Below are positions 4,659-63,126 of a stretch of 64,000 bases of DNA, one piece after another. A program made the translations under genes and the position numbers. Below the pieces are notes generated by a model, which was not told the origin of the DNA, searched no databases, and was given only the letters and a program-made list of their open reading frames with translations. Each line of letters opens with the position of its first letter. Within the stretch, counting starts at the first letter, position 1. The stretch is from a virus: IMG/VR virus record IMGVR_UViG_3300011008_000022. The stretch is one strand, 5' to 3'.

Positions 4659-5696
4659 ATGGCACAAGGATTACTCATACAAGGTGCATCACCACTCGTA
4701 GGCAGCCCTATCACTTATCAGGTGACAGCAGCGGTCATCAGTGGCGATTGCGCTTTTCATCGTGTCAAACTGACGGTATCGGCATTCCTCGAAGGTGTCG
4801 ATATCAACTTTGCCGACCTCACGCTGTCCTCTCCGGCTGAGTCGGGAGAAATCCTGAAGTTCGACATCAGCAGCGCACTACGTGCTGTCGCAGATAAGTA
4901 TGAGTACACTGTCAACCCGCCTGCCAACTATCCGCGTATCGGATATAGACTGTCTGCCTGCGATGAGTACATGCAGAACGGAGAGGTACACGATAACGTG
5001 GGCGTGGTGACGATTGACACCATTCAGTATTGCATCATGGGTGCCTACTCGGATATGGAACGTCTGCTATCTGCTGGCAGCAAGTCGGCACAGCACTTTA
5101 CACGCAAGCCGAACACGATGCCGGAGGTGGTGGCCGTAGGAGAGAGCATGGTATGCCCTCAGTCCTATGCTCAACCCGTCAGCAGTGGAAATATTACCGT
5201 AGGACCTACATCATCGGTGGTAAACATCGTCAACGAGGGATTGCAGACGGTCAATGGCCGTCAGGTGTATGCACTGCCTGCAGGACAGAAAGACCGTTAC
5301 GAGTTCCGCTTTGTCAATGGCCTGGGATGCCTCGAAAGCATCAGCGTAAAGGCTTTGCGTACCTCTGAAACGAACGTTACCCAGGAGTCTTTCATTCGCT
5401 CGGTGCAAGAGACGTTCAACTCATTCTCGCGAGGACTCGTGACTAAGAAAAACGATTACGAGACTTGGAAGATGTGTAGTGGACCGCTCGACGAAGCATG
5501 GCATTCGTGGTTCATGCACGAGTTCATCATGGCTAAGTTCGCCTGGATAAAAATCAACGGACATTGGATAGGGTGCCACATCGTTCCTGAAGAAACAGTA
5601 GATGGCATCGATCGTACCAGCGGCAACTTCATGCAGGTGGAGTTCTCAGTACAACTTGACATCAATGGCAGCCCACTCGCTGCTTTGGCCATATAG
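4659..5696 (+). CDS. hypothetical protein
   Basis: 345-aa ORF between hairpins 4620-4638 and 5706-5723. Confidence 0.7.
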   Translation: MAQGLLIQGASPLVGSPITYQVTAAVISGDCAFHRVKLTVSAFLEGVDINFADLTLSSPAESGEILKFDISSALRAVADKYEYTVNPPANYPRIGYRLSACDEYMQNGEVHDNVGVVTIDTIQYCIMGAYSDMERLLSAGSKSAQHFTRKPNTMPEVVAVGESMVCPQSYAQPVSSGNITVGPTSSVVNIVNEGLQTVNGRQVYALPAGQKDRYEFRFVNGLGCLESISVKALRTSETNVTQESFIRSVQETFNSFSRGLVTKKNDYETWKMCSGPLDEAWHSWFMHEFIMAKFAWIKINGHWIGCHIVPEETVDGIDRTSGNFMQVEFSVQLDINGSPLAALAI

Positions 5697-5705
5697 CCAC
5701 CAATC

Positions 5706-5723
5706 CCAGCCGTTCTCGGCTGG
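5706..5723 (+). terminator. family-A hairpin
   Basis: CCAGCCGttctCGGCTGG, after the stop at 5696. Confidence 0.6.
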
Positions 5724-5758
5724 ACCTCGAAAAGAAACAACATAATAATAAAATAAAA

Positions 5759-6268
5759 ATGAATAGTATCGTATCATTCTTCCAGAGCTTCTTCAGCTCA
5801 GTACCGCGACAGATTGCTGTCGGACTGGGAATTGTTTGGGCATGGCTGGAGCCAACACTCCCCTATGCCGCTATGTGTTTGTTTGCTGTTGTCATCGATT
5901 GCCTCACGGCATGGCGATTAAATCGGCGTGTGAAGGCTAAATATCCGAACGCAGGAGCCGATGGCAAACTGAAATCCTCACACATGTCGAAGATGATATC
6001 AGACCTGGCTATCGTTTGGCTCTGCATCCTACTGGCAGACGGTGTGGATGATAATTTGCTCGAACACCTTGGAGGTCTCCACCTCGGCCAGTATGTAGCA
6101 GCTATCTTTGTCCTCTGCACGGCTGTCTCGATACTCGAAAATGAGTCTTCATGCAATGGCGCTGCATGGGCAAGAGCCGTCCAGAAGATTGTCACCTCGA
6201 AAGTCGCTCGCCATATCGACATCGACGAGAAAGAATTGGAGGAGATCATACACGAGAAAAAAGAATAG
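5759..6268 (+). CDS. putative holin-family membrane protein
   Basis: 169 aa with several hydrophobic helices (VGLGIVWAWL, MCLFAVVIDCLTAW, LAIVWLCILLA, AAIFVLCTAVSILENESSCN). Resembles phage holin 4_1-type proteins by eye. Confidence 0.45.
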   Translation: MNSIVSFFQSFFSSVPRQIAVGLGIVWAWLEPTLPYAAMCLFAVVIDCLTAWRLNRRVKAKYPNAGADGKLKSSHMSKMISDLAIVWLCILLADGVDDNLLEHLGGLHLGQYVAAIFVLCTAVSILENESSCNGAAWARAVQKIVTSKVARHIDIDEKELEEIIHEKKE

Positions 6269-6276
6269 TCACCGTG

Positions 6277-6296
6277 CCCAGCCGCTCTCGGCTGGG
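6277..6296 (+). terminator. family-A hairpin
   Basis: caccgtgCCCAGCCGctctCGGCTGGGtctc. Confidence 0.6.
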
Positions 6297-6312
6297 TCTC
6301 AATCTATAAGGT

Positions 6313-6876
6313 ATGAAAGCAAATATCAGCAAAATCCTCGAAAAATGGGCGGAATTGTACGAGCCTATCAGCCATGACCCCAAGAAAGGGTCTAAGGATA
6401 AGGCATACTATGAGATTCGTACCATCAATGACAATTCTGGCTTCATGCGCAATCAGAATGCGGCTAAGTCACCGTGTATGGCATATTCTATCCTGATTGA
6501 TGCTCAGGGCACGAATAACCACGTCGTCAACTATGCTCATGCCATCTACTTCCTCGTCAGGGCTAAATCCTACTCGCTGGCGAAAAATGCACGTCAGGAT
6601 GACGAACTGGGTGCCGACATTCAGATGACGATGGATGATTACGTCCAGGATCTGCTGGCATACCTGCGTGAACTGAAACGGACAGGGATATGTCCTATCA
6701 CGGGTGCTACCTACGACCGTCCTACAATGGATGCACTAAGAGGAATGCAACTGGAGAGCGCTGAATGGGCTTCTGCGCCTGTCAAGTACGCTGAATGGCA
6801 TGTAATGGGATTGAACATCGAACAAAACGCACCGCGACAACTGTGCGTGAATAAAGAACTCTATAAAAACGAATAG
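6313..6876 (+). CDS. hypothetical protein
   Basis: 187-aa ORF that starts 17 nt after hairpin 6277-6296. Confidence 0.65.
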   Translation: MKANISKILEKWAELYEPISHDPKKGSKDKAYYEIRTINDNSGFMRNQNAAKSPCMAYSILIDAQGTNNHVVNYAHAIYFLVRAKSYSLAKNARQDDELGADIQMTMDDYVQDLLAYLRELKRTGICPITGATYDRPTMDALRGMQLESAEWASAPVKYAEWHVMGLNIEQNAPRQLCVNKELYKNE

Positions 6877-6880
6877 CATT

Positions 6881-7558
6881 ATGGAAAAATTTAACTATCA
6901 ACAACCGTGCTGCATCGAGAGCACACTGCCACAGCTGCTGAAGAAATACGACTGGCTGCCATTCCAGACAAGTGGCGATGTGACAGTAGAGAAAATCCTG
7001 AAGGCTGTAAGCTACCTCGCTGGCAACAACCTCGACATCACTATCTGCCTGCCGGCTATCGACGTAACAATCCTGCGCCTATTCGCTTGGTACCATAGAC
7101 GTGGATGGCTGAAAGCGTTTACCGTCTTAACGGCAACAGACCAAAGCGAACTGATCCGTAACGAATTGCCAAAGGAACTGCCACTAACCATCGTGGATAG
7201 TGCCGACATCCCCGAAAACTATGGTATGTTGGTCATCAAAGGTGAACTGAGCAATGTCATCGTCAATGGTCCGATCTTCTCAGTCGTCACACCAGGCATC
7301 TGTTCCTATACGGCATACTATGGCAAAGACCCAGAGCGTATCGCTCAACTGACCGACACCATCAATGCCCGCATCCGCGTCGCTGATGCCAAAAAGAAAA
7401 GGGCTGCAAGGAAAACAACCCCAAAGAAAAAAGGCACCACCACTCCCGCCTCCGAAGCTCCTGCTCCCGCTGATGGTTCCACTGTGCTCGGCGATTCTGT
7501 CGTCGAGGAAAAAGACTCCACCTCTCCCGCTGCTTCTCCAGCGGGCACTGATGAATAA
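6881..7558 (+). CDS. hypothetical protein with K/P/A/T-rich low-complexity tail
   Basis: 225-aa ORF. In-frame hairpin at 7526-7545 (SPAASPAGT). Confidence 0.65.
   Translation: MEKFNYQQPCCIESTLPQLLKKYDWLPFQTSGDVTVEKILKAVSYLAGNNLDITICLPAIDVTILRLFAWYHRRGWLKAFTVLTATDQSELIRNELPKELPLTIVDSADIPENYGMLVIKGELSNVIVNGPIFSVVTPGICSYTAYYGKDPERIAQLTDTINARIRVADAKKKRAARKTTPKKKGTTTPASEAPAPADGSTVLGDSVVEEKDSTSPAASPAGTDE
7526..7545 (+). repeat. hairpin in-frame inside CDS 6881..7558
   Basis: CCCGCTGcttctcCAGCGGG, encoding SPAASPAGT. Confidence 0.6.
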
Positions 7559-7599
7559 CCATACCGCTGCACCGCAACGGTAAATTCGCGTTACTCCTG

Positions 7600-7676
7600 C
7601 ACCCAGCCGCCCGTTATCGGCTGGGTGTTTTCTTTTCCAGCGCTTCCGCCACTGTGCCCAGCCGTTCTCGGCTGGG
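7600..7676 (+). terminator. two family-A hairpins between convergent genes
   Basis: CACCCAGCCGcccgttatCGGCTGGGTG and actgtgCCCAGCCGttctCGGCTGGGt. Confidence 0.65.
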
Positions 7677-7678
7677 TT

Positions 7679-8245
7679 TTATCCTTCTTTCTGCTGAATG
7701 TTGGCCACGGCATCCTTAACCTCCTCCCATGCCACCATTTCCAATTTGCGAGTATCAGGATCATACTCACCAACAAAGGCAATGGCCTCATGCAAGGCAT
7801 CATCGGTGCGGTCGGCAATCACAAAGAACTCGAACGGCTCAATAGGAGGCACCTGAACGGAACCAGGCACAAGACCGGCACGGACAGCACGACGGATGCG
7901 GTCGGCTTCTGCCTTCGGCAATACAACCACCTGAGCCTTGCGCTCACGGATGGCTGCCTGCTCCAACTCACGGGCATGTTCCTCCCACTTCTCATTCTGC
8001 AACTTCCACACCATATAAAGATAGGCGTTATTCAGGAAATTACGCCAGCGCTCCCACCCTTGACCAATAAACACAACTGCCAAAGGCTCGGCAATATACA
8101 AACGACGCTCACGGGCATTCCACATCAGCATGTTCGACTCAAACAGCTGCTCTAAGTAACCAAACACGCGACTGGTTTTCACCATTTCCTTACGCTTCTT
8201 CTTTGCGGCTCTCTTCTTACGCCACTCCTTAAAAAATCCAAACAT
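7679..8245 (-). CDS. hypothetical protein
   Basis: 188-aa ORF, convergent with 6881..7558. Confidence 0.6.
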   Translation of the reverse strand: MFGFFKEWRKKRAAKKKRKEMVKTSRVFGYLEQLFESNMLMWNARERRLYIAEPLAVVFIGQGWERWRNFLNNAYLYMVWKLQNEKWEEHARELEQAAIRERKAQVVVLPKAEADRIRRAVRAGLVPGSVQVPPIEPFEFFVIADRTDDALHEAIAFVGEYDPDTRKLEMVAWEEVKDAVANIQQKEG

Positions 8246-8286
8246 ATTCTAAAAGTATTAAGTGAAAAATGTTTCGTCTATTGTTC

Positions 8287-8395
8287 GGCGATTGCATCGC
8301 CGCTTTTCGTTCTGTGCCCAGCGCTTTTCCGCTGGTCCTGTATGTCGCTATGTCATAGCGACCTTAGCCATCGTGCCCAGCCGTTCTCGGCTGGG
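8287..8395 (+). repeat. stack of four hairpins (C, A, B, A) between two minus-strand genes
   Basis: GGCGATtgcATCGCC (8287-8301), CCAGCGcttttcCGCTGG (8317-8336), GTCGCTATGtCATAGCGAC (8344-8362), CCCAGCCGttctCGGCTGGG (8376-8395). All have plus-strand polarity. Confidence 0.7.
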
Positions 8396-8397
8396 TC

Positions 8398-8712
8398 TTA
8401 TCCATAGATCTTCGTCCCGTCTATATCCACAATCAGGAAGTCCCACACATACCTGATAGCCCCAGAGTCCACAAACTGCACCCTGCGCAAATGCTTACGA
8501 CGGTCAACATCCAACGAAATCACCATGCCGCTCTCCAGTCGCCCGCTCTTCGTCACAAAACGGACGAAAAACGGCACTCTGGCCAACTTCTGTACGCCAG
8601 GAGGGGGATTGTACCCTACAGTCATCAGTCCCGTGCGTTTATCCTGCCACGTCCACTTCTCTGCGAACATGCGCACCTTCTGCCAGTGCTCACTTGGTTG
8701 TCTTTTTGGCAT
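8398..8712 (-). CDS. hypothetical protein
   Basis: ORF track gives 8398..8742. The ATG at 8712 (MPKRQPSEHW) lies 27 nt downstream of a minus-strand TATCTTTG box (8740-8747). Confidence 0.55.
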   Translation of the reverse strand: MPKRQPSEHWQKVRMFAEKWTWQDKRTGLMTVGYNPPPGVQKLARVPFFVRFVTKSGRLESGMVISLDVDRRKHLRRVQFVDSGAIRYVWDFLIVDIDGTKIYG

Positions 8713-8739
8713 AATGCTCCTTTTTTGATGATTACTTCG

Positions 8740-8747
8740 CAAAGATA
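8740..8747 (-). promoter_or_regulatory. -7 box TATCTTTG on the minus strand
   Basis: Reads CAAAGATA on the + strand. 27 nt upstream of ATG 8712. Confidence 0.5.
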
Positions 8748-8773
8748 GTTATTCTCCCCTACTCCACCGTGAC

Positions 8774-8835
8774 AAATTTTTCCCCTATTTTTGAACCAAT
8801 TTTAGTCAGAATGAAAAATTTTCCCCCTATTTCTT
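8774..8835 (+). promoter_or_regulatory. two direct operator-like repeats (AAATTTTTCCCCTATTT / AAAATTTTCCCCCTATTT)
   Basis: Located between divergent genes 8398..8712 and 8894..9220. The 12-mer TTTCCCCTATTT recurs at 59690-59701. Confidence 0.45.
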
Positions 8836-8856
8836 GTAAATATCAAAATATATTCG

Positions 8857-8864
8857 TATCTTTG
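8857..8864 (+). promoter_or_regulatory. -7 box TATCTTTG
   Basis: Part of the shared cassette TATCAAAATATATTCGTATCTTTGCACC. 29 nt upstream of ATG 8894. Confidence 0.6.
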
Positions 8865-8893
8865 CACCAAAAATAACAAAATAAAATAAGATT

Positions 8894-9220
8894 ATGACCT
8901 CAAAATTAGACCTTAATCGTGCTTTTAGTGAGCACGGAGTTACTTCTAAGACCGTTGCAGAGCGCATCGGACTGACACCACAGACCATCAGCGCTTATGT
9001 CAACGGCAACCCCACCGTCAAGAGCCTCTATCAGATAGCAGATGCACTTGAATGTGATGTGCGCGACCTGTTCTATCCCGTCGAGGATGCCACAGAGGAA
9101 ACCACCACTCCCGATGCCTCTCCATCGGGCACAAACGGCCCTCGTGCCTCTGCTCTGATTACATGTCCGCATTGCGGCACAGTCCTCTCAGCATCCCTTT
9201 CGGTCTTCAACAAATCATAA
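8894..9220 (+). CDS. XRE-family helix-turn-helix regulator
   Basis: N-terminal HTH (KTVAERIGLTPQTISAYVNGNPTVKSLYQIADAL). Divergent from 8398..8712, with operator-like repeats between them. In-frame hairpin at 9110-9129. Confidence 0.65.
   Translation: MTSKLDLNRAFSEHGVTSKTVAERIGLTPQTISAYVNGNPTVKSLYQIADALECDVRDLFYPVEDATEETTTPDASPSGTNGPRASALITCPHCGTVLSASLSVFNKS
9110..9129 (+). repeat. hairpin in-frame inside CDS 8894..9220
   Basis: actCCCGATGcctctcCATCGGGc, encoding TPDASPSGT. Confidence 0.7.
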
Positions 9221-32634: not shown

Positions 32635-32981
32635 TTCTCTTCAAATAAATTATTCAACTTCCACTCAAAATCTTTATCACTCTTAATCACATGGTCAAAG
32701 GGCGTTTCTATCTTTTCGATGATGGCGATGTATATCAGACATGCCAAAACGTTAAACCCGTAGTCAGCATCTGTATGGTTCCCTGAGTAGTATGCCTGTG
32801 CGCGTATGCGTAACATATACCTCACGAAGTCGCTCTGCTCAGTTACTAATGTAATAGCCGTATGAAGAAAACAGGAGTATTTAGGCTTATACTGATAGTC
32901 CCAAGCCTTGTATATCGCCATTAACTCATCAGGAGTCTTGCGGCTTAATCTGATCAGAGCGAGTATTTCTTCTTTTTTCAT
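32631..32981 (-). CDS. hypothetical protein
   Basis: 116-aa ORF with 4-nt overlaps on both sides. Confidence 0.6.
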   Translation of the reverse strand: MKKEEILALIRLSRKTPDELMAIYKAWDYQYKPKYSCFLHTAITLVTEQSDFVRYMLRIRAQAYYSGNHTDADYGFNVLACLIYIAIIEKIETPFDHVIKSDKDFEWKLNNLFEEK

Positions 32982-33796
32982 CGAGTAGTATATGTCATGT
33001 TATCACTCTTCACACTCACGCTCACCAGTCTCAGCCGATTGTCACCGTCACTCAGGTTCGCATTCAGCCACTCCTGAACACTCTCTTTCAGGAACTCTGC
33101 AGCATCGTTAGCAGGGTAGTGGTCACACCAAGGGTACGTCAGTTCCACCTCTATCTTCATCGTCTTAGGCATCTTCTGGCGGTCCTCTTTCCACAGTTCA
33201 ATGGCTTGCTGCATCAGATCGTCATCGTTCACCTCCTTTTTAGGATTTGCCATTACCAGGCTCTCCCATCTTCTCATATCCTTTGCCCACTCTTTCCGCA
33301 GAGCTTCCGGCACTTCTATCACCCTGTCGTGAATTTGGCCTAAAGTACCTATTGCCGACGGCCCTGCATACGGATTGCCACTGATACCACTGCTCAGATA
33401 GCCAAAACCATGATGGAAGTCCCACATCCTTCCCCAGAACGGGAAAAACGGCTTATCGTTAGGCTTTGCAGGTCGCCACCAGTCCTCTTCCTTAAAGGTG
33501 ATGTCATCGGTAGTCTTTCCCAGCTTCTCAGGATGCTTCTCGAAGTCCTTAAACTTTGTTTTCACGTAGTCTATCTGCTTCTCGATCTCCTCTTTCGATG
33601 GTCCTGTCATGTTGGGCCATATCTTCTTTGTCTGGGCGAAGCTATCCACCGTCAGTTTCTCCACTTTCGGTTTCAGCGTCTCGTATTCCTCCACAGTGAG
33701 ACCCCTGATAGGACCAAAGTCAGACTCCTGGCATAGCAATCTCCATACCAGGCCGTCCACCCACCATAAGTGACAATAAACAAACTCTTCTTTCAT
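32978..33796 (-). CDS. hypothetical protein
   Basis: 272-aa ORF. Confidence 0.65.
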   Translation of the reverse strand: MKEEFVYCHLWWVDGLVWRLLCQESDFGPIRGLTVEEYETLKPKVEKLTVDSFAQTKKIWPNMTGPSKEEIEKQIDYVKTKFKDFEKHPEKLGKTTDDITFKEEDWWRPAKPNDKPFFPFWGRMWDFHHGFGYLSSGISGNPYAGPSAIGTLGQIHDRVIEVPEALRKEWAKDMRRWESLVMANPKKEVNDDDLMQQAIELWKEDRQKMPKTMKIEVELTYPWCDHYPANDAAEFLKESVQEWLNANLSDGDNRLRLVSVSVKSDNMTYTTR

Positions 33797-33822
33797 GTCT
33801 CTTCTATTTTTTTGTTCTGTAT

Positions 33823-33849: not shown

Positions 33850-34658
33850 TCACTCCTCAAAGTCCAGCGTCATCTGCCTGCCAGCCTCTTTGATGCGTTT
33901 CTCGGCGATGGCGAAATACTTGGGGTCTTTCTCGATGCCTATATATTGCCGCTTCTCAATCACAGCAGCCACACAGGTAGTGCCGCTCCCCATCGTATTG
34001 TCAAGAATTACCCCCCCGAATTGGTATAAGTCCTAATCAGATAGCGAAGCAGATCCACGGGCTTTTGTGTCGGATGGTACACCGTCGTCTCGTGCTCCTT
34101 CTGAATATGGATAATCGACTGAGGGAATTTCTCGTTAGGTCGGGTAGGGGCCACTTTCTTGATCTGCTTATCGTAGTCATACGTCCTGCCCGTCTTGAAC
34201 TGTCCGTAACAGTTGTTAGTCCTCGGATGCTCCAACTTCCCTTGCGAGTGGTTCGGCTCACCAATGCCCATCTGAGGGTTATACACTGGCAGCTGCTTAT
34301 AGAACACACAGATGTCCTCATGGCAGCGCATTGGCATCCTGTTCGCATTCAGGAACCCTGTTCCACGTCCTTTGTCCCATATCAGGTTATATCGCCACAG
34401 TTTCCTGTTACTCTGCATCAGGTCGCTGGTAAACATCCCCTGACCAAACAGAGCAATCACACCTCTCGGCTTGATGATGCGCTCATAGTGCGCCCAAAGA
34501 GGCTCAAAGGGTATCATCCTATCCCATTGCGCATTCGGGTTATCCTTATGTAGCACCTGGTATGGCAAATCACAGATAATCGCATCTATGCTCTTATCTG
34601 CTATCCCTGCCATCAGTTCCAGACAGTCGCCCTGGTATATGTGGTTTGCTTCTAACAT
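33850..34658 (-). pseudogene. beta-class N4/N6 DNA methyltransferase interrupted at a G7 tract (possibly phase-variable)
   Basis: ORF 34008..34658 carries motif IV (IICDLPYQV) and ends ...TYTNSGG* at the C7/G7 run 34011-34017. Hand translation of the next frame gives [53 protein letters not shown] (motif I), with its stop at 33850-33852. One extra G restores the frame. Confidence 0.75.
34011..34017 (+). repeat. C7 homopolymer (G7 in the minus-strand MTase mRNA), flank AATTA
   Basis: gaATTACCCCCCCgaa. It terminates ORF 34008..34658. Confidence 0.9.
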
Positions 34659-34679
34659 ATCTCTATCTTTGTTCTGTCT

Positions 34680-34698
34680 GCAGCTATGTCATAGCGAC
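34680..34698 (+). repeat. degenerate family-B hairpin
   Basis: gttctgtctGCAGCTATGtCATAGCGAC. Confidence 0.5.
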
Positions 34699-34703
34699 TC
34701 CAT

Positions 34704-34880
34704 CTATCCCTTTTTCTGATGTATCTCTTTTTGCATAGCCCTGGCTATTTGCTGGTAGCGCACCTTGTGAATGTCGCTCGTGGTTGAAACCATCTGCAGG
34801 TCCCTCATATATAGCTGTCCTGCCATCGTTGCCAACCTCGCCAGCCGTTTCACCCTCGGCTCATGTATGTTTATACTCAT
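34704..34880 (-). CDS. small hypothetical protein (58 aa)
   Basis: Hand translation: MSINIHEPRVKRLARLATMAGQLYMRDLQMVSTTSDIHKVRYQQIARAMQKEIHQKKG. Lies between hairpins 34680-34698 and 34898-34916. Confidence 0.35.
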   Translation of the reverse strand: MSINIHEPRVKRLARLATMAGQLYMRDLQMVSTTSDIHKVRYQQIARAMQKEIHQKKG

Positions 34881-34897
34881 TCCTTTTCGTTCTGTAT

Positions 34898-34916
34898 GTG
34901 GCTATGTCATAGCCAC
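34898..34916 (+). repeat. family-B variant hairpin
   Basis: gttctgtatGTGGCTATGtCATAGCCAC. Confidence 0.65.
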
Positions 34917-35194
34917 CCGTCAAATTCCAATTCATACTGGAGGAACTTCTCGGCATACCATTTCTTGTAGGCTTTTCCACTGATCCACCAGTCGAAGATG
35001 TTTCCGGCTATTTCCTGCTCTTGCTCATCAGTCAAGCCGTCAGGCGATGAGCAATCTGAAAACCCGCTTTCCAGTGGTTCGGGTCTGGGTGTTGGATGAA
35101 CCCGTAATCGTCGGTCTTTCCCCCAGCGTATCGGCTTCCAGTCTTTTCCAATACCGTACCACAGGGTTTGTTGTGGTAAGCGTTCTTTGCAATA

Positions 35195-35202
35195 CCCCCC
35201 CC
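35195..35202 (+). repeat. C8 homopolymer, flank AATA
   Basis: gcAATACCCCCCCCgaa, inside the PAPS-reductase-like gene. Confidence 0.9.
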
Positions 35203-35912
35203 GAACGGATGGCTATGATAGCCTTTATCCAGTTTCTTCTTACGTGAGGCCATCGCTCGTTTTCAACCGTTTTCTGTCTGGGTGGCGACATCGGACAGCA
35301 GATGCAACCTATGCGGGTAAATCCTTGGTCGTAGAGTTCGCAGTGTGGCACCTGTACCACCTTATTCAGAAATTCCCATACATCCCTTTCAGTCCAGTGG
35401 ATGATAGGCGATATCAACAGTGTTTCTTTACCACTGATGCAGCCTATGGTCTTCTCTTCTTTGGCATTGGTGATATTCACCTCACCCTTCTTTCGTGTGC
35501 TCGGCGATTTGGTCGCCGATAGCTTTTCTTTCCTGAACTTCTCAAAGGCTTTCAGATCACCGCTGAATGAGTAGTTGCTAATCTCCACCTCATTACGTTT
35601 GGCCCTGTTCCGACTCTCCTGGTGTCTGATGCCGATGAGTGTCACTTTGCCCGCACCGGCTTTCTCCTTGAACTCTTCGCAGCACCATCTTACTTTCTTG
35701 GTAGGTAGCAGCTGCTTTCTCAGAGCAACATGGTAGATGCTATCCTTGGGTTTGATGAGTTCCACTTCTGGATATTCCCGTTTCACAAAACGGATCACCT
35801 CTGGCGGGTCCACAGAAGTCAAATTCATGTGTCCCTCGAATTGTACGCCGGCCAACTGTGCAATATGGATGAGCGCCTGACTGTCTTTGCCTCCGCTGAA
35901 AGCAAGGTAATA

Positions 35913-35921
35913 CCCCCCCCC
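35913..35921 (+). repeat. C9 homopolymer, flank AATA
   Basis: gtAATACCCCCCCCCtcg. It separates ORF 35740..36045 from ORF 35040..36014. Confidence 0.9.
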
Positions 35922-36148
35922 TCGTATCGTAGGCCAGTGCCAACTTCTCAGCCTTACGCAGTAGGCTGATGGAGTATTCCATCTTCCTGCGTAGCCGTTT
36001 GCTGGCTCTTCCATACGCTTGTGCCAATGTCATGTTTATCTTCATTATATGTCTCTTATTTCCAATATTCCGAAAAAATAAGCCCCTTTTTCGTGACTTT
36101 TTCTCTTATTCTCTATTTAAATGGCAAATTAAGCAGTTTTTGACCGCC

Positions 36149-36340
36149 TTATTTTGTCAAATATAACTCCCGCTCCTCTTCATCGCAGTGGTCAATAATC
36201 GTTGGCTCCTCGCCCTTTGCTCTTTGCGGACAGAATGCTGTCGTCTGCTGGAAGCGCTCACAGCTCTGCTTCAACAGACAGCGCTCCCCATGACAGAGTA
36301 ACATCAAATGTTTTCCCATAGCTCTTAATGTTTCGTTCAT
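36149..36340 (-). CDS. small Cys-rich hypothetical protein
   Basis: 63-aa ORF. The start abuts hairpin 36346-36360. Confidence 0.4.
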   Translation of the reverse strand: MNETLRAMGKHLMLLCHGERCLLKQSCERFQQTTAFCPQRAKGEEPTIIDHCDEEERELYLTK

Positions 36341-36345
36341 TGTAA

Positions 36346-36360
36346 GGCGATTGCATCGCC
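36346..36360 (+). repeat. family-C hairpin
   Basis: gtttcgttcattgtaa GGCGATtgcATCGCC gtcc. Confidence 0.6.
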
Positions 36361-36364
36361 GTCC

Positions 36365-36963
36365 TCAGTTAAACCATTTAATCACCGTGTCGCCCTGATA
36401 GCCTTTCACCCACACAAACCAGGCATAGGCCGTCGCGCTCCCGCTGATCTTATCAAACTCACCATTCATGGCACATAGCAGTCTCGATGAACTGACCCAT
36501 ACTCGTGCCGGAGGCTGTGTCCTGAACAGGTGCTTTCTCCCTCGCCCTTCCAAAAAGGTAAGTTTGAGAAACATGCACACCTTTTTCCCCTCTGGAATAA
36601 TCTGCAGCGCTTTCTCCACAAACTCTTGTGCATAGGCATAAGGCGGGTTTGTAATGATGTCCCCGTCCCATTGTAGATTGTCGATAGCCAGAAAGTCGGC
36701 CACTTCTCCATAACCTCGATCGATGATATCTCGCGAAGTAACGGAATACCCCCCCTAATAAGCACCTTACTGATGTGACCCTCGCCACAGGCAGGTTCCA
36801 GGATGGGACCGTCAAACTTTTCCAGACGTAGCAGCCACTCCGTCGCCTTTGGCTCAGTGGCATAGTAGTCACCCCAAGCCCGCTCATGGTCGGTATGGTT
36901 ACTGGCACCCAGCGTCTTAAACACCGATGCCCTGCCTCCTACCCAGTCTTTCTTCTCGCTCAT
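36365..36963 (-). pseudogene. gamma-class N6-adenine DNA methyltransferase interrupted at a G7 tract (possibly phase-variable)
   Basis: The N-terminal part (MSEKKDW...ILEPACGEGHISKVLIRGG, motif I) is in the frame of ORF 36466..37050. The C-terminal part (..DGDIITNPPYAYAQEF.., motif IV) is in ORF 36365..36703. They join only if the run 36749-36755 is G8 (giving ...RGGYSVTSRDIIDRGYGEVADFLAID). Confidence 0.75.
36749..36755 (+). repeat. C7 homopolymer, flank AATA
   Basis: ggAATACCCCCCCtaa. It splits the NPPY methyltransferase. Confidence 0.9.
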
Positions 36964-37099: not shown

Positions 37100-38197
37100 T
37101 TATAGTGTAATTTTTACTTCTACATTATCGATAGTCAGTACCACGCCGCCTCGCCAGCCACGCCTCTGTATCTCGTCTATCAGCTCCTTATCCGTGAAGT
37201 ATTCAAGAGTAGTTGGCACAGCGGTCTTTCCTGGTTGCACTTGGCCATGACCAAAGCCACCGATAAAGTCATCTATGCCTCTTTCTATATGCTCATTCAG
37301 CTCCTCTTCAGCAGGGGCATGGTTGTTTTCCTCTTGCTCCTCTTCTCCCGCCACCGTGCCCTGCCGTTCTTGGCTGGGTTCTTCCACTACTCCCAGCGTA
37401 TCTCCGCTGGGTCTCTCCACTGTGTCCGCTGTTTCTCCAACGGGTATTTTAGGCACTAAGCCTTTTCTTCCCTGTCGGCTCTCTCGTGGTTCAAAAGAGG
37501 AAAGATCTTTCTCATCACACCAGTAGAAACCACCAGCCAACCGTTTCTTATCGATGGCCCTGCTGATGTTCTTAATGCCCAGCCCATGTTCGGCTGCACC
37601 CATCGACTCCCACACCCTGACAACCTTCAGCGTCGAGGGGTCTATTTGTGCAACCTTGCGCTTGGCTCGGTTCTTACTTCTTCCCAACGTGTCCCGTTCA
37701 CCCTGATAGGGATTTTTCGGCGTCACCCGTGTTTGCTTCCTTTGTTCCATAACTGGCGTATTTTGTTCTGATTTTAACACTTTTCGTTCCAATTTCGGCT
37801 CTTTCCGTTCCAATTTTAACGCTTTCCGTTCTTTCTGCTCCTTTTCCGCAGGCAGAGGCATCGCCTCTGCACCATCCAGGATGGCTCTGTAGTCAAACGT
37901 CGGCATCGGGCATTCCTCTGGCGCTTCATCATGCGCAAAGTTCAGCACATGCACCATCACACTGGCAGCGCGTGTCTTATCCTCCACGAACACAGGGCCA
38001 CGCTTTTTCATCGCCTCTGTCAACACCGATAGCGTCAGCATTTTGCAGGGCGTGTCAAAGTCTAACTTCCTCCACACCTGCATAAAGGCACTGCGCGTCT
38101 TGATATATAGCGTCTGCCTCTGTTTCTGCTTACCCCATTTTTCGTATGCTTCTTTCAGTGTCATCTTTTTGCTTCGTTCTTTGTCAGGCGATTGCAT
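37100..38197 (-). CDS. DNA-binding protein with homing-endonuclease-type (NUMOD/IENR-like) HTH module
   Basis: 365-aa ORF. The true start is probably the ATG at 38164 (MTLKEAYEKW), because 38187-38201 is a hairpin. VAQIDPSTLKVVRVWESMGAAEHGLGIKNISRAIDKKRLAGGFYWC resembles NUMOD-type modules by eye. Two in-frame hairpins at 37359-37411. Confidence 0.45.
   Translation of the reverse strand: MQSPDKERSKKMTLKEAYEKWGKQKQRQTLYIKTRSAFMQVWRKLDFDTPCKMLTLSVLTEAMKKRGPVFVEDKTRAASVMVHVLNFAHDEAPEECPMPTFDYRAILDGAEAMPLPAEKEQKERKALKLERKEPKLERKVLKSEQNTPVMEQRKQTRVTPKNPYQGERDTLGRSKNRAKRKVAQIDPSTLKVVRVWESMGAAEHGLGIKNISRAIDKKRLAGGFYWCDEKDLSSFEPRESRQGRKGLVPKIPVGETADTVERPSGDTLGVVEEPSQERQGTVAGEEEQEENNHAPAEEELNEHIERGIDDFIGGFGHGQVQPGKTAVPTTLEYFTDKELIDEIQRRGWRGGVVLTIDNVEVKITL
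37359..37411 (+). repeat. two family-A hairpins (one decayed) in-frame inside minus-strand CDS 37100..38197
   Basis: caccgtgCCCTGCCGttctTGGCTGGG and CCCAGCGtatctcCGCTGGG. Read in antisense they encode ..RPSGDTLGVVEEPSQERQGTVAG.. Confidence 0.65.
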
Positions 38198-51773: not shown

Positions 51774-54700
51774 ATGGCCGATAAACAGATATACATCAAA
51801 ATCAGTGCGGATTCAGCACAACCAGTAGCAGCCGTAAAAGCCATGCGCAACGAACTGTCGCGCTTGCAGAAGGCGTATGATGCCATCAACACGTCCACAG
51901 CTACTGGCGCTCAACGTGCCCAGAAACTGCAAAAGGAAATGGCCGACCTCCGTGCGCTCATCAAACAGCAGGAGGCTGACATGAATAAAGTGTCGAAGGT
52001 GATTACCAATCTGTCGAATGCGTCTTTGTCTCAGCTCAACCAGGCGCTTCGTCAGGTGAAAAAGGAAATCTCGCGCACCAGTGAGTCCAGCCCGAAACTG
52101 GAAGAGTTACGCCAGAAATACAAGGCTATTACCGACCAGATTAAGGTGATGAATGGCGAAATGATTAACATCAAAAAGCACATGGGCGAACTCTCCACGC
52201 AGACGGATTCCTGGCTGCAACGTGCCATCAATCAGCAGAAACAGCTGGTGGAGTCCACGCAGAAGACGAGTAGCGCTTATCAGGGACAGGTCAACATCCT
52301 ACACCAACTCCAAAACGAACAGGCGCGTCGTGCTGTCTCTACCATCAGCGATGGGGGGGCTTCTGCCGATGCACTCCGCACCGCTCGTGCTAACCTGGTG
52401 TCTTATCGCGACCAACTGGGTAAGGGTGGCATCCTGCCGGCATCGGGCAATGTGGCTACTGAGATCGAGCGCATCAATGCCGAACTGAAAAAGTGTGATG
52501 ACCAACTGGACGCTATCGCTGGCAAGGAGAAACAGATTGAATTGACCACCGACCAACTCCAGCAAAAGGCTGATAATATCATCCTCGACCCCAAGAAATT
52601 CTCGCCAAAGGAGATAAAGGCTGCCATCGATGAGATTCAGAAGAAGTTGAACAACCTCGGCACGAATGATACTGCTCGTAAGAAACTCAACGAACAGATG
52701 AAGCAGCTGAAAAACATTCTCGATGGTGTCGATCACGAACTGGTGAATATCGGGGACCTCTTGAAGCCTGGCAACCTCCGCAAAGCACCACTCGAAACGC
52801 TCCAAAAGGCTGCAAAGCAGTTGGAGAATGAAATGGCAAAGCTCAACCGCGACCAACAGCAGTATATCGATAAGCAAAAACAACTCGCCGCTATCCGTGG
52901 CGAGATAGAACGTACCACCGGCGCTATTAACCGTCAGGGGTCTGCATGGAAAACGACGTTTCGCAATATCTCTATGTACTTCGGTGTCTTCCAACTGTTT
53001 TCTATCGCTCAACAGAAACTGCAGGGGATGTTGCAAAGCAACCTGGCTTATTCTGACCAACTCGCCGACATCCGCAAGGTGACGGGTCTCGCCACCAAGG
53101 AGGTCAACGAACTATCTGACAGCCTGGCAACGCTCAACACGCGCTCTACGGTACAGGATTTGGCCGACCTCGCTTATCAAGGCGGTAAGATGGGATTCGG
53201 AAAGTACGGTGTAGAAGGCATGAGCGCATTCGTCCGCGCTGCCGACCAGGTAAAGGTGGCGCTGTCTGATGACCTCGGCGATGACAGCCTCTTGCAGATC
53301 TCCAAGCTCGTCGATACCATGGGACTGATACCTAAACTGGGTGTCGAACGTTCCATGCTTGCTGTCGGCTCATCCATCAACCAGCTTTCGGCCACTTCTA
53401 CGGCATCAGGAACGCATATCGTGGACTTCGCGAAGCGCCTCACAGGTCTCTCGCGTATCACGGGTATCACAACGCCGGAACTACTGGCACTCGGCTCGGC
53501 TGCCGATGCACTTGGGCAGGCTCCTGAAGTCGCGGCCACGGCTTTCGGTAAACTCTTCACGTCGCTGCAAACCAACCACAACCTGATTGAACAGCAGCTG
53601 AACATGGAAAAGGGCACCATCAACAACCTCTTCTCACAGGGTAAGGCGATGGAGGCTATTCTTCAAATCATGGAGAAGATGCGCGAAAAGGGTAATATGA
53701 ATGCCCTCGGCAACATCTGGAAAGACCTCGGTTCTGAGGGACAGCGCCTGATAGGTGTCATGGCTACCATGTCTAAGAATGTCGATACCGTTCGTGCTCA
53801 TGTCGAAGAGTCTAACGTCGCCTTTGAGGAAGCTACGTCTCTTACCAATGAGTACGCTCTGAAACAGGACACAGCCAATGCCATTCTCGAAAAGGGTAAC
53901 AACCTCTGGGCAAAGGCTTTCACCAACCCTGAAGGGGTGGATATGGTCAAGCAGATGGCTCAGGCATGGTACGACCTCTCGAAGTCGATGACTTCCAACG
54001 AGGCTTCCATGTGGATAATGAAAAATCTCCTCGGACTGATTGCTGCTGAATTGAAGATACTCCTCGCACTCCTGCCGGCAATCCTCACAGGTTTGCTCTT
54101 CAAGGGTGCCTCTGTCGCTATCATCGGCCTCGCATCGTCTATCGGACTCATGGGTAAGAATGCGGTACTCGCCACCCTGCAGACAAAGGGATTGGTGGCT
54201 GCATGGCACGCCCTGAATACGGCTCAGAAGATGAACGTCATCGGCCTCTGTATCTCTCTTCTCACGGGTCTCGCTATCGCCATCGCTTCTGTCATCAAGA
54301 AAGGCAACGAGGCTACTACATGGATGCAGGGCTTCAATAGCACCATGTCCGACTTCAACCGTGAGTTTGCTATTGCTGACGACCGCCTGAAGCGCTTTAA
54401 GAAGGCTATCGATGATGCTGCTACTGGCTCACGTCAACGTGCAGCTGCCATCCGTAATTTCAACAAGGAATATGGGCAGTATCTCTCGAAGATGCTCACC
54501 GAGAAATCTACGGCTGATGATATCGCCAAAGCCTATAAGGAGGTGGTGAAGCAACTCCGTGCGAAGATTGCCCTTCAGATGAAGGAAAAGGATATCACCT
54601 CACAGGTGGCTCCTCGTGTCGGATGGTCTGCCGACCGCCTCACAGAATACGACAACGTGGCAGGTGGCTCTGCCTACAATGGCACATGGCTGAAAGCCTA

Positions 54701-57636: not shown

Positions 57637-57900
57637 ATGGAAGAAAAACTTTTCGCTCGTATCGTGGCGCTCCTCACCGCCCACTTCGACAACATGCCTG
57701 CAGCCGAGGACATCCACCTCGACGACAATCTGCATGAAGACCTCAATCTCGATTCTATCGACATTGTGGACTTCATTATGATGTGTGAAACGAACTTCAA
57801 CATTAAACTCGACATGACAGATGCGAAGAACACGCACACCCTGCGCGACCTCATCCGTTCTATCATCGAAGTAAAGCCCAGCCTATGCGACGCACAGTAA
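57637..57900 (+). CDS. acyl carrier protein
   Basis: 87 aa with the phosphopantetheine-attachment motif EDLNLDSIDIVDFIMMCE. Confidence 0.75.
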   Translation: MEEKLFARIVALLTAHFDNMPAAEDIHLDDNLHEDLNLDSIDIVDFIMMCETNFNIKLDMTDAKNTHTLRDLIRSIIEVKPSLCDAQ

Positions 57901-59117
57901 TCACGGGCATGGGCATCTGGTCCTGCATCGGTCAGTCCGTTCAGGAGGTGGCTCAGTCTCTCCGTCTTGGAAAGAGTGGCATCGGCATCGATCCTGAGCG
58001 TACCGCCTACGGCTACCAATCACCCCTTACCGGCATCGTGCCGCGTCCCGACATCAAGGCTCAGGGATTGCGACGCTCTCAGCGCATCACACTCTCCGAA
58101 CCTGGTGAATATGGCTACATGGCCATGAAAGAGGCGCTGACGATGGCTCCTGTCAGCGACCTCTATCGCTGTGGCCTTATCGTCAGCAATGACAGCACTG
58201 CTGGCGCTCTCGCTGAGACAGAGGCTATCATGGCGGAATACCATGACAGCCGACGACTGGGTGCCGGCATGGTGTTCCGCACCCTCAATAGCTCGGTATC
58301 TATGTCGCTGGCTTCCATCTTTGGCATCGGTGGCCTCACACTCTCCGTCTCTGCTGCCTGTGCCGGTGGTGGCCACGCTATCGGTCTCGCTCATTCGCTC
58401 ATTCAGTCCGGCCAACTGGACTGCTGCATTGTGGTAGGCGCTCAGGAGGTAGGACTACATGCCTATACATCCTTTGATGCACTCGGTCTCTTCAGCAAGC
58501 GTACCGACAACCCAGCAGCTGCCTCACGTCCGTTTGACACAGAGCGTGACGGCCTCGTGCCCTCTGGTGGCGCTGCCTGCGTTATCCTCGAAACAGCCGG
58601 ACATGCCGCTATGGGAAACAGAAAACCCTTGGCCATGGTCGATGGCTATGGCTTCTCCACCAGTCCCGATCTCGTTTCTCCCTCTTCCGATGCTATTTAC
58701 CAGTCCATGACCGCCGCCCTATCTGCCGCCACTGTGCCCAGCGGTTCTCCGCTGGGTCCTGGTATCTCCGCTATCATGGCTCACGCTACCTCCACGCCCG
58801 ATGGCGACCGTGCCGAGGCAGAAGCTATCCACCGCTTCTGTCTTGATAATGGTCTATCTCATCCTTTCGTCATCAGCACCAAGGCGCTCACAGGTCACGA
58901 GTGCTGGATGTCGGGTGTCTCTCAGATCGTCTATGCACTCATACAGATGCAAGGTGGTTTCATAGCACCAAACATCAACCTCCGCACCATCGACCCAGCA
59001 GCAGCTACGCTACGCATTCCAACAGCGCCAACCGTCACCACGCTAACCACCGTTCTCTGCAACGCCTTCGGTTTCGGTGGCACCAACAGTAGCCTGGTAA
59101 TCTCTCGCGCTGGCTAA
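57885..59117 (+). CDS. beta-ketoacyl-ACP synthase (FabF/FabB-type, Cys-His-His)
   Basis: RRTVITGMGIWS, active-site SAACAGGGHAI, AHATSTPDGD, TKALTGHECWMSG and NAFGFGGTNSSLVI. The start overlaps the ACP stop by 16 nt. In-frame hairpin at 58737-58756. Confidence 0.8.
   Translation: MRRTVITGMGIWSCIGQSVQEVAQSLRLGKSGIGIDPERTAYGYQSPLTGIVPRPDIKAQGLRRSQRITLSEPGEYGYMAMKEALTMAPVSDLYRCGLIVSNDSTAGALAETEAIMAEYHDSRRLGAGMVFRTLNSSVSMSLASIFGIGGLTLSVSAACAGGGHAIGLAHSLIQSGQLDCCIVVGAQEVGLHAYTSFDALGLFSKRTDNPAAASRPFDTERDGLVPSGGAACVILETAGHAAMGNRKPLAMVDGYGFSTSPDLVSPSSDAIYQSMTAALSAATVPSGSPLGPGISAIMAHATSTPDGDRAEAEAIHRFCLDNGLSHPFVISTKALTGHECWMSGVSQIVYALIQMQGGFIAPNINLRTIDPAAATLRIPTAPTVTTLTTVLCNAFGFGGTNSSLVISRAG
58737..58756 (+). 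repeat. family-A hairpin in-frame inside the ketoacyl-synthase CDS
   Basis: cactgtgCCCAGCGGttctCCGCTGGGtcctgg, encoding TVPSGSPLGPG, just before the AHATST histidine motif. Confidence 0.8.
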
Positions 59118-62673: not shown

Positions 62674-63126
62674 ATGGAACAAAAATTCGTAAATTACCCC
62701 CCCCTGGAAGACCTGAAACAGCTCTCCGAGGAAGAAGTACGAGCATGGTTTGGTAAAGTTAATACCTACCGTGATGAAGCTATCATGCAGATCCGTACCA
62801 AGTGCGACAATGACGTGTTCAACGTCCGTACCGAACAGCAGGTAGAACGCAACCGCATCATCTGCCTTATCGACCTCAAACGGTCACAACTGCCCTCTGG
62901 TGGCACACCCGATGAGCGCGAAAAAGCATTAGCACTGCGTCAGGAAATGCACAACCTCGATCATCAGATGCAACTCAATGACATCAATACGCAGAAGAAA
63001 ATCTATGACCTCAAACACGAGAAGAAAGTGGCCATCAACGCACTGCAACGTCAGTGGGAAACAGCAACAGGTGTCCTTAAACAAGCACTGATTTTCGTCT
63101 GCGAAAAAGCAAAGGAAACAACGTAA
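62674..63126 (+). CDS. hypothetical coiled-coil protein with a C8 tract in codons 8-11
   Basis: ATG at 62674 (MEQKFVNYPPLEDL). The tract 62697-62704 is in-frame as sequenced. Confidence 0.55.
   Translation: MEQKFVNYPPLEDLKQLSEEEVRAWFGKVNTYRDEAIMQIRTKCDNDVFNVRTEQQVERNRIICLIDLKRSQLPSGGTPDEREKALALRQEMHNLDHQMQLNDINTQKKIYDLKHEKKVAINALQRQWETATGVLKQALIFVCEKAKETT
62697..62704 (+). repeat. C8 homopolymer, flank AATTA, in codons 8-11 of a plus-strand gene
   Basis: aAATTACCCCCCCCtgg. In-frame as sequenced. Confidence 0.9.

Follow-up and report, generated by a model that had tools for sequence, protein, structure and literature searches.

Sorensen and colleagues are said to have demonstrated by experiment in 2021 that poly-G tracts in receptor-binding and structural genes of Fletchervirus phages act as switches. 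This work on the poly-G tracts of Campylobacter phages (Cell Rep 35:109214) is cited in two further papers (PMC12823448, PMC10877375), and the agt glucosyltransferase gene of phage T2 represents a contingency locus that allows escape from TgvAB and reverts under McrA/BC (Gomez, Barrick and Waters 2025, PMC12633550). Among bacteria, phase-variable Type III mod genes and Type I/II methyltransferases are known from Haemophilus, Neisseria, Helicobacter, Campylobacter, and Moraxella (PMC13076061). Here, a comparable arrangement is reported for the viral record IMGVR_UViG_3300011008_000022, of which a 64-kb stretch with phage-like gene content (the window in the following) was analysed. Three adjacent genes of this phage, coding for two DNA methyltransferases (genes A and C) and an intervening 3'-phosphoadenosine 5'-phosphosulfate (PAPS)-reductase-like PP-loop protein (gene B), are interrupted by long G:C homopolymers, and a fifth such tract lies in a distant gene. 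The original prediction had regarded these tracts as slipped-strand contingency loci, and this interpretation is supported by a comparison across genomes, in which the tract lengths differ at all five sites and include both in-frame and out-of-frame values. The features concerned are listed here, with ON denoting the length that keeps the open reading frame (ORF) intact.

33850-34658, minus strand: gene A, a beta-class N6/N4 DNA methyltransferase (DLPY ... GSGTT)
34011-34017, C7: tract A, read as G7 in the mRNA sense of minus-strand gene A; ON length G8
34907-36045, minus strand: gene B, coding for a PP-loop protein (SGGKDS) similar to PAPS reductases, whose C-terminal domain is conserved
35195-35202, C8: tract B2 in minus-strand gene B; ON length G7 or G10
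35913-35921, C9: tract B1 in minus-strand gene B; ON length G8
36365-36963, minus strand: gene C, a DNA methyltransferase with NPPY (motif IV)
36749-36755, C7: tract C in minus-strand gene C; ON length G8
62674-63126, plus strand: fifth gene, an ORF of 150 amino acids (aa) between thyX and a radical S-adenosylmethionine (radical-SAM) gene
62697-62704, C8: fifth tract in the plus-strand ORF 62674-63126, poly-C in the sense direction; in frame as sequenced

These five tracts are exactly the C runs of at least seven nucleotides present in the window. Because the spectrum of C runs does not follow a geometric decay (31 runs of C5, one of C6, two of C7, two of C8, and one of C9), the long runs constitute a class of their own in the length spectrum. 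The motif WTACCCCCCC (W representing A or T) is matched by all five of them, whereas dinucleotide-preserving shuffles lead to an expectation of 0.19 matches and none of 100 shuffles reached five. Four of the five tracts fall within a coding stretch of 2.7 kb in the 64-kb window (binomial probability ~1.5e-5). The coordinates and run lengths given for all five in the original prediction proved to be exact, the run census confirmed that they are all C runs on the plus strand, and the proposed frame effects were reproduced by repairing the reading frames: G8 restores gene A, G8 at 35913 together with G7 at 35195 restores gene B, and G8 restores gene C, which amounts to the mixed corrections of +1, -1, -1, and +1 that had been claimed. 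Likewise, the fifth tract is indeed in frame in codons 8-11 of the 150-aa plus-strand ORF. A G7 run at 52353-52359 in a tape-measure-like gene was considered as a sixth tract and rejected, as all six relatives read GGTGGGG at this position; it represents a private T-to-G change or a base-call error outside the tract system.

As sequenced, gene A codes for 216 aa and ends with a TAA directly after the tract, ahead of the SAM-binding motif I (GSGTT). With G8 at this position, it codes for a protein of 269 aa containing both the DLPY and the MGSGTT motifs, which matches PF01555 over the entire profile (positions 1-221 of 221; 103.1 bits at a cut-off of 26.7, E = 3e-29) and also matches phrog_67. 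The break in gene C falls between motif I (EPACGEG) and NPPY, and the gene as sequenced continues in the wrong frame up to 165 aa, missing NPPY, while the G8 version codes for 199 aa and matches phrog_799 with E = 1e-61. Genes A and C each contain a length-variable tract upstream of an essential motif, in keeping with the repeat-controlled ON/OFF state of phasevarion methyltransferases. The public data hold the exact products of either state for both genes, namely those of 269 aa (P0002) and 216 aa (P0001) for gene A and those of 199 aa (P0166) and 165 aa (out of frame, P0180) for gene C, and the cluster of gene A (at least 90% identity) also includes members of 219 aa, matching G9, and of 217 aa, matching G10. 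The existence of exact ON and exact OFF products of the same genes, together with the low dN/dS values (ratios of nonsynonymous to synonymous substitution rates) and the tract purity described below, is the pattern expected of reversible switching. Among the matches listed, ON and OFF versions were counted on 16 and 29 contigs for gene A, on ~93 and ~66 contigs (165/166-aa form, plus fragments) for gene C, and on 133 and 31 contigs for the fifth gene (150-aa form and 181-aa C7 variant), all of which are rough values from partial lists of samples that are not independent. The 150-aa protein encoded by the fifth gene has no match in Pfam or PHROGs, and its tract is present as C8, C9, or C10 in three near-identical genomes.

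Gene B is broken twice in the window, so that its product ends at 101 aa and the PP-loop is never read in frame. Repair by G8 at 35913 plus G7 (or G10) at 35195 results in a protein of 378 aa, which contains FSGGKDS and matches PF01507 (76.6 bits at a cut-off of 22.5, E = 3e-21) as well as phrog_424; no equivalog cut-off was reached in NCBIfam, and a role in DNA modification is suggested by the neighbouring genes. Tract B1 codes for R-G-G just 5' of the PP-loop, and out-of-frame lengths end the protein within ~100 aa. Tract B2 codes for S-G-G at the transition from the PAPS-reductase domain to the C-terminal domain, with G8 and G9 leading to two alternative short tails. Full-length versions of gene B occur naturally, as seen from products of 375 aa (P0046, 99% identity, with SGGG at B2 indicating G10), 378 aa (P0047, with G7 at B2), and 374 aa (L260), and all three frames following B2 are found in nature (..YCKERL.. 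in P0046 and P0047, ..VLQRT..LLIA in P0017, and ..GIAKNAY..HRLTA in P0048 and P0050). Tract B2, which is located between two domains and whose three phases correspond to three different C-termini, resembles in this respect the C-terminal sequence switching by simple sequence repeats reported for Helicobacter canadensis (PMC2823697). Gene B contains two tracts in the window and three in some relatives. In relatives, the gene just 3' of gene B codes for a CxxxCxxC protein of ~310-330 aa with its own poly-G tract near the N-terminus (L005 at 5254, L008 at 5346, and L086 at 2601); this protein has no Pfam match and shows no similarity to the radical-SAM gene of the window.

Length variation at the DNA level is evident from close relatives. 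The genome IMGVR_UViG_3300026549_000055 is 98% identical to the window, and all indels between the two within the three genes are confined to the tracts (C, 8 vs. 7; B2, 9 vs. 8; A, 8 vs. 7). Moreover, this genome is circular with a terminal overlap of ~150 nt that includes B2, the tract being G9 in one copy of the overlap and G8 in the second. Over ~20 species-level genomes of 95-99% identity, drawn from JGI, ENA, and Logan and representing different samples and assemblers, the lengths range from 6 to 11 for B1, 7 to 11 for B2, and 7 to 9 for both A and C. Between pairs of 95-99.2% identity, zero to four of the four tracts differ, and the closest pair shows 24 substitutions in 3.1 kb, one differing tract, and no other indel. 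Of 18 comparisons of G/C runs of 7-9, 13 showed a difference in length, as opposed to 2 of 151 for A/T runs of 5-6 and 0 of 25 for G/C runs of 5. The polymorphism of the tracts is therefore well above the background indel rate, as expected for contingency loci. Neither a single length restoring all frames nor a fixed out-of-frame length accompanied by further decay was observed among the relatives, two outcomes named beforehand as speaking against switching. Variation was also noted for an intergenic T7 run at 33807-33813 (A7 in the sense of the minus-strand gene), which is located 11 nt 5' of the ATG of gene 32978-33796 and reads 6 or 8 in near-identical relatives, whereas two A7 runs inside coding sequence (14589 and 21299) were unchanged in five of five comparisons; the intergenic run may represent a further switch acting at the level of expression.

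A view on the substitution patterns shows that the interrupted genes have remained under constraint. For the segments located 3' of the breaks, comparing the window with a relative of 88% identity, in which three of the four tracts are likewise out of frame, gave dN/dS values of 0.036-0.15. As these values are low beyond the breaks, the three genes are under purifying selection and should not be regarded as pseudogenes. The tracts themselves appear to be maintained by selection as well. Tract B1 is present as an uninterrupted G run of 7-10 in 24 distinct sequences, in which the adjacent glycines of SGGKDS are encoded by GGA, GGC, GGT, and GGG. Relatives lacking the tract contain ...GAG AAC GGA TAT TAC (ENGYY) with an equal number of codons, which rules out that it arose by insertion, indicating instead an origin by substitution and identifying the TATTAC flank as ancestral Tyr-Tyr codons. 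A distant human-gut clade is devoid of B1 and has a tract of its own 16 codons after the PP-loop of gene B; among 34 distinct contexts from this clade, 21 have G8 (17 of them verified to be open beyond the tract), and the 13 with G7, G9, or G10 are all truncated. Finally, the spectrum of G/C runs over all fetched loci is bimodal, with 746 runs of 5, 48 of 6, 114 of 7, 116 of 8, 41 of 9, and 16 of 10, and that of A/T runs falls steadily; note that the loci were chosen around tract-bearing genes, which biases the absolute counts and leaves the shape of the spectrum unaffected.

Taken together, we consider it likely that the tracts are genuine hypermutable homopolymers, kept by selection as contingency loci in a clade of ~100-kb Prevotella phages, and random switching between ON and OFF is probable for the two methyltransferase genes and the neighbouring enzyme gene. 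In the mechanism proposed, slipped-strand mispairing during DNA replication would add or remove one G:C pair, moving each gene between one in-frame (ON) and two out-of-frame states. The OFF states would truncate gene A ahead of the SAM-binding motif and gene C ahead of the catalytic NPPY motif, and at B1 they would cut the PP-loop protein short before its PP-loop, whereas B2 would toggle between a C-terminus made up of the conserved domain and either of two short tails. The presence of several tracts in gene B would reduce the share of phages with this gene ON. Since each tract would toggle its gene at random, the progeny of a burst would consist of mixed combinations of active modification enzymes and presumably carry different DNA marks. 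The benefit would probably consist in bet-hedging, as some restriction systems are blocked by a mark and modification-dependent ones attack marked DNA, and the agt locus of T2 serves as a precedent for this logic (PMC12633550). We infer replication slippage as the cause, and the same holds for a switching rate, the methylation motifs, and the bet-hedging benefit.

Several observations weigh against this interpretation. The heterogeneity within a population is derived from the single contig overlap of IMGVR_UViG_3300026549_000055, and a same-sample search showed that the lists of ON and OFF contigs share no sample. The in-frame fraction amounts to only ~1/3 to 2/3, depending on the gene, and G8 is the most common length at B2, A, and C (and narrowly at B1), irrespective of whether it is in frame; consequently, selection for the ON state at the DNA level is not demonstrated. 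Furthermore, the bias towards G in the sense direction and the bias in the flanking nucleotides, which are both described below, are not predicted by simple replication slippage.

Some of these features would be explained if the frame were recovered during expression, either by RNA polymerase slipping on the G run or by the ribosome shifting on G GGG GGG, with the length of the DNA tract being near-neutral noise and the tract itself being retained to control expression. This kind of recoding is unlikely to be the main explanation, even though the in-frame fraction is near the expectation of a G8-centred distribution, G8 is modal at B2 despite being out of frame there, G prevails over C when the runs are read in the mRNA sense, and the genes are under purifying selection despite many out-of-frame consensus genomes. 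Transcriptional slippage is also well established in bacteria on runs of 9 A or T (PMC5009743), a precedent which at the same time limits the argument, because the documented cases are A/T runs (PMC5009743). Programmed sites normally exhibit one length and one direction, whereas the tracts described here are 6-11 nucleotides long and require mixed corrections. In-frame alleles are common, as is apparent from the exact ON versions of A and C, the full-length versions of B, and the fifth gene (133 of the 164 contigs among the matches listed), and the in-frame length represents the majority in the human-gut clade. The fifth tract, which is poly-C in the sense direction, varies alike, and no slippery site of fixed length whose frame is reached by slippage alone was encountered. 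We know of no G run that has been shown to support slippage-based recoding. A contribution of recoding on top of contingency switching is possible, yet not required.

An even smaller probability is assigned to the view that the tracts are real and their lengths wrong, with all true genomes being in frame. Homopolymers are error-prone in sequencing and assembly, two lengths were recorded for one site in one contig, several contigs are of low coverage (e.g., NODE_634 at 3.8x), and the contig of one relative (L232, IMGVR_UViG_3300038674_000117) starts with an artefactual C51 at positions 1-51, which is typical of contig ends and unrelated to the internal tracts. However, an equal spread of lengths is found across JGI, ENA (SPAdes, MEGAHIT), and Logan assemblies of many samples, and consensus calls at Illumina depth should, as a matter of general knowledge, yield the modal length. 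In these very contigs, stable lengths are seen for A/T runs of 5-6 and for A7 runs in coding sequence, and given out-of-frame products recur on many independent contigs, such as the 334-aa form of B on 17 and the 165-aa form of C on 19 among the matches listed. Errors also do not account for the bimodal run spectrum and the conserved purity of the tracts. The original prediction had already argued from the mixed corrections that systematic miscalling fits poorly. Miscalling is also made unlikely by the recurrence of the tracts at conserved positions across dozens of independent assemblies from rumen and gut.

The sequence context of the tracts could point to a signal at the DNA level, in which G(n)-Y-A (Y representing a pyrimidine) serves a phage or host protein, recombination, or the pausing of replication or of primase, and the loss of frame is tolerated. 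On the G strand, the 3' flank reads YA in 86 of 119 distinct contexts (TA in 54, CA in 32) as compared to 19% after runs of G4-5; A and T are enriched at positions -1 and +2 to +4; the orientation of the motif is kept on the G strand even in genes reading poly-C; and some tracts of relatives are located just 5' of start codons and outside ORFs. Such a signal is nevertheless very improbable. The flank of B1 consists of the ancestral Tyr-Tyr codons, next to which the tract came about by substitution at a constant number of codons, and the tracts cluster within coding regions that belong to a single functional class (of the five in the window, four fall within 2.7 of 64 kb). Neither a partner protein nor a longer repeated motif was found. 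The flank AAT(T)A, which had been put forward as shared by the tracts, is indeed present in the window; it does not qualify as a special signature and represents one case of the G(n)-Y-A bias. The idea that a TA flank provides an instant stop codon in OFF frames is true for gene A (TAA) and fails for gene C (165 aa) and for CAA flanks.

The related claim that the polarity of the runs follows the DNA rather than the gene is not supported by the relatives, whose runs are mostly G in the sense direction (55 G-sense, 19 C-sense, and 39 ambiguous by a crude ORF-based assignment), and in two of which (L232 and L233) many G runs occur on the strand where the window carries C runs. The window itself does not allow a decision on polarity, with a ratio of 5:1 either way once the G7 at 52353 is counted. 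GC skew is below zero in nearly every 4-kb bin of the window regardless of gene orientation (17855 C vs. 14254 G overall), i.e., the plus strand is the C-rich strand throughout, and since the skew is negative throughout, the C runs on the plus strand simply lie on the C-rich strand.

Plain pseudogenes in the course of decay, as might be suspected from all four tracts in the three genes being out of frame in the window, are effectively refuted and the least probable option of all, given dN/dS values of 0.04-0.15 on both sides of the breaks, the absence of further indels or stop codons in the genes, and the existence of in-frame alleles of identical sequence.

Contingency switching, the interpretation preferred here, has to be seen in the context of the phage group concerned. 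The phage represented by the window is a member of a clade of ~100-kb Prevotella phages from rumen and gut, and its host is most likely Prevotella, because the relatives originate from rumen and gut metagenomes (e.g., STEW19 cattle-rumen assemblies and a Prevotella metagenome-assembled genome of water-buffalo rumen), the assembly of Prevotella sp. MGM1 includes a related contig of 90 kb (NZ_BEWV01000204.1), and one relative fragment is labelled 'uncultured Prevotella sp.' at NCBI. No cultured relative of the 5-kb tract region was found by megablast against 50,697 phage records, and tblastn with gene B retrieved distant relatives only (at most 53% identity). In Bacteroides phage BF10P2, an annotation '(x2) hypothetical protein' under the match seemed to indicate a split gene and turned out to be a mere gene boundary. 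Apart from the genes described above, the window codes for a tape-measure-like protein, DnaN, a BT4734-type primase, an NAD ligase, a multi-repeat C5 methyltransferase, and a methyltransferase with DUF4942.

Further features of the window are noted as follows. The C5 cytosine methyltransferase (PF00145, 49456-51072) contains five tandem xPxP(T/A)(I/V/L)T-like units, located in between conserved blocks, and, as judged by eye, is reminiscent of multi-specific methyltransferases known from Bacillus phages. Positions 57885-59117 code for a beta-ketoacyl synthase (PF00109 and PF02801), which is an unusual auxiliary gene for a phage. In gene 37100-38197, a 39-bp in-frame repeat indel (AAGGAGCAGAAAGAACGGAAAG...) was recorded at ~37844 relative to the 98%-identical genome; a Lys/Glu-rich repeat thus differs in copy number in this protein, which has no assigned function. 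Finally, the 13-nt palindrome GCTATGnCATAGC occurs in 11 copies vs. 0.19 expected (at 2740, 4623, 8347, 18755, 23973, 26638, 33826, 34683, 34901, 51099, and 59566), apparently between ORFs and often 20-30 nt 5' of a start codon, including those of genes A and B; it may act as a terminator hairpin or an operator.

Some relatives additionally contain arrays of ORFs of 60-90 aa ending in (L/V)IEY(D/E)(L/F)-stop, a family absent from the window. Their locations are as follows.

L233 (IMGVR_UViG_3300021255_002463), 5495-9182: array of mini-ORFs
L232, 250-978: array of mini-ORFs
L097: array of mini-ORFs
L084, 1240: array of mini-ORFs
L009, 2984: array of mini-ORFs

Each mini-ORF has a G7-G10 tract within or just 5' of its start, adding up to 13 tracts in 3.7 kb of L233, and the units of L233 are separated by palindromes resembling GCTATGnCATAGC. 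The L233 array flanks a C5 methyltransferase (ORF 6003-7610, with motifs IX-X ahead of I-VIII), with four tracts located upstream of it, one inside, and eight downstream. An attempt to read the array as a single frameshifted gene failed, as the best ORF after repair comprised 115 aa, and it has to be regarded as an array of short ORFs. The mini-ORFs have no match in Pfam, BLASTP against the C5 methyltransferase of the window returned nothing, and a match in the PDB was spurious; one unit weakly matched phrog_16427 (DNA methyltransferase, E = 8e-4). They may represent switchable specificity modules.

From these arrays and the tracts of the window, a wider picture can be drawn, which we offer as a speculation. 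The clade might possess a 'phage phasome' of dozens of G7-G11 switches of the G(n)-Y-A type, concentrated in DNA-modification genes and providing combinatorial epigenetic diversity in each burst. Such a system might include several methyltransferases, the PP-loop enzyme, and the CxxxCxxC protein, with the mini-ORFs serving as modules for a split C5 methyltransferase, and the flank bias could reflect a mutability tuned by the sequence context or by a dedicated factor. If the tracts act as switches in the manner proposed above, abundant rumen and gut phages would vary their own DNA marks stochastically, a counter-defence mirroring the phase-variable restriction-modification of bacteria. Phage contingency loci would then concern epigenetic identity in addition to receptor binding, and their range would include phages of the Bacteroidota. 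Methylation-based linking of phages to hosts and the binning of contigs could then err on mixed epigenotypes, and the prediction of host ranges would have to treat a phage population as a mixture. In annotation, frameshifted phage genes with breaks at G runs should be neither 'corrected' nor called pseudogenes. The 90-kb contig related to the window in Prevotella sp. MGM1 may offer a culture system.

Compared with the known systems, programmed slippage or frameshifting (Atkins et al. 2016, PMC5009743) has in common with the tracts described here that a homopolymer is located at the junction of two reading frames, whereas the known bacterial slippage sites consist of 9 A or T of conserved length and the tracts of the window vary at the DNA level, with in-frame alleles being common. 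Bacterial phasevarions likewise combine a simple repeat in a methyltransferase ORF with slipped-strand ON/OFF switching, yet they are cellular, usually linked to restriction-modification systems, and reprogramme the expression of the host, while the methyltransferases of the window phage are orphan enzymes encoded by the phage, with no endonuclease partner seen and the phage DNA as presumed target. With regard to the novelty assumed in the original prediction, no report was found in the open-access literature of repeat-switched methyltransferases encoded by phages, nor of comparable tracts in Bacteroidota phages; contingency loci of phages as such are known, and those based on A/T runs occur in T-even and other phages, including the DNA-modification gene agt of T2. 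The latter case (PMC12633550) is similar in that a homopolymer in a phage DNA-modification gene causes a reversible frameshift, but it concerns an A run (bases 288-296), which is one of more than 100 A/T runs of at least 6 distributed over all gene classes, whereas the phages of the clade have few G:C runs of 7-11, which form a separate peak in the spectrum and are concentrated in one module with up to three tracts per gene. The Fletchervirus phages share the principle that the length of poly-G tracts in phage genes switches expression and generates mixed progeny, and their host lineage also phase-varies by poly-G; they belong to an AT-rich epsilonproteobacterial setting, as opposed to Prevotella (Bacteroidota) phages of ~50% G+C, DNA-modification genes, and comparative evidence in the present case. 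The contingency loci described here thus do not introduce a new principle, and what is noteworthy about them in comparison to these systems is that they extend across a whole clade, are concentrated in modification genes, occur more than once in some genes, and show a biased flank.

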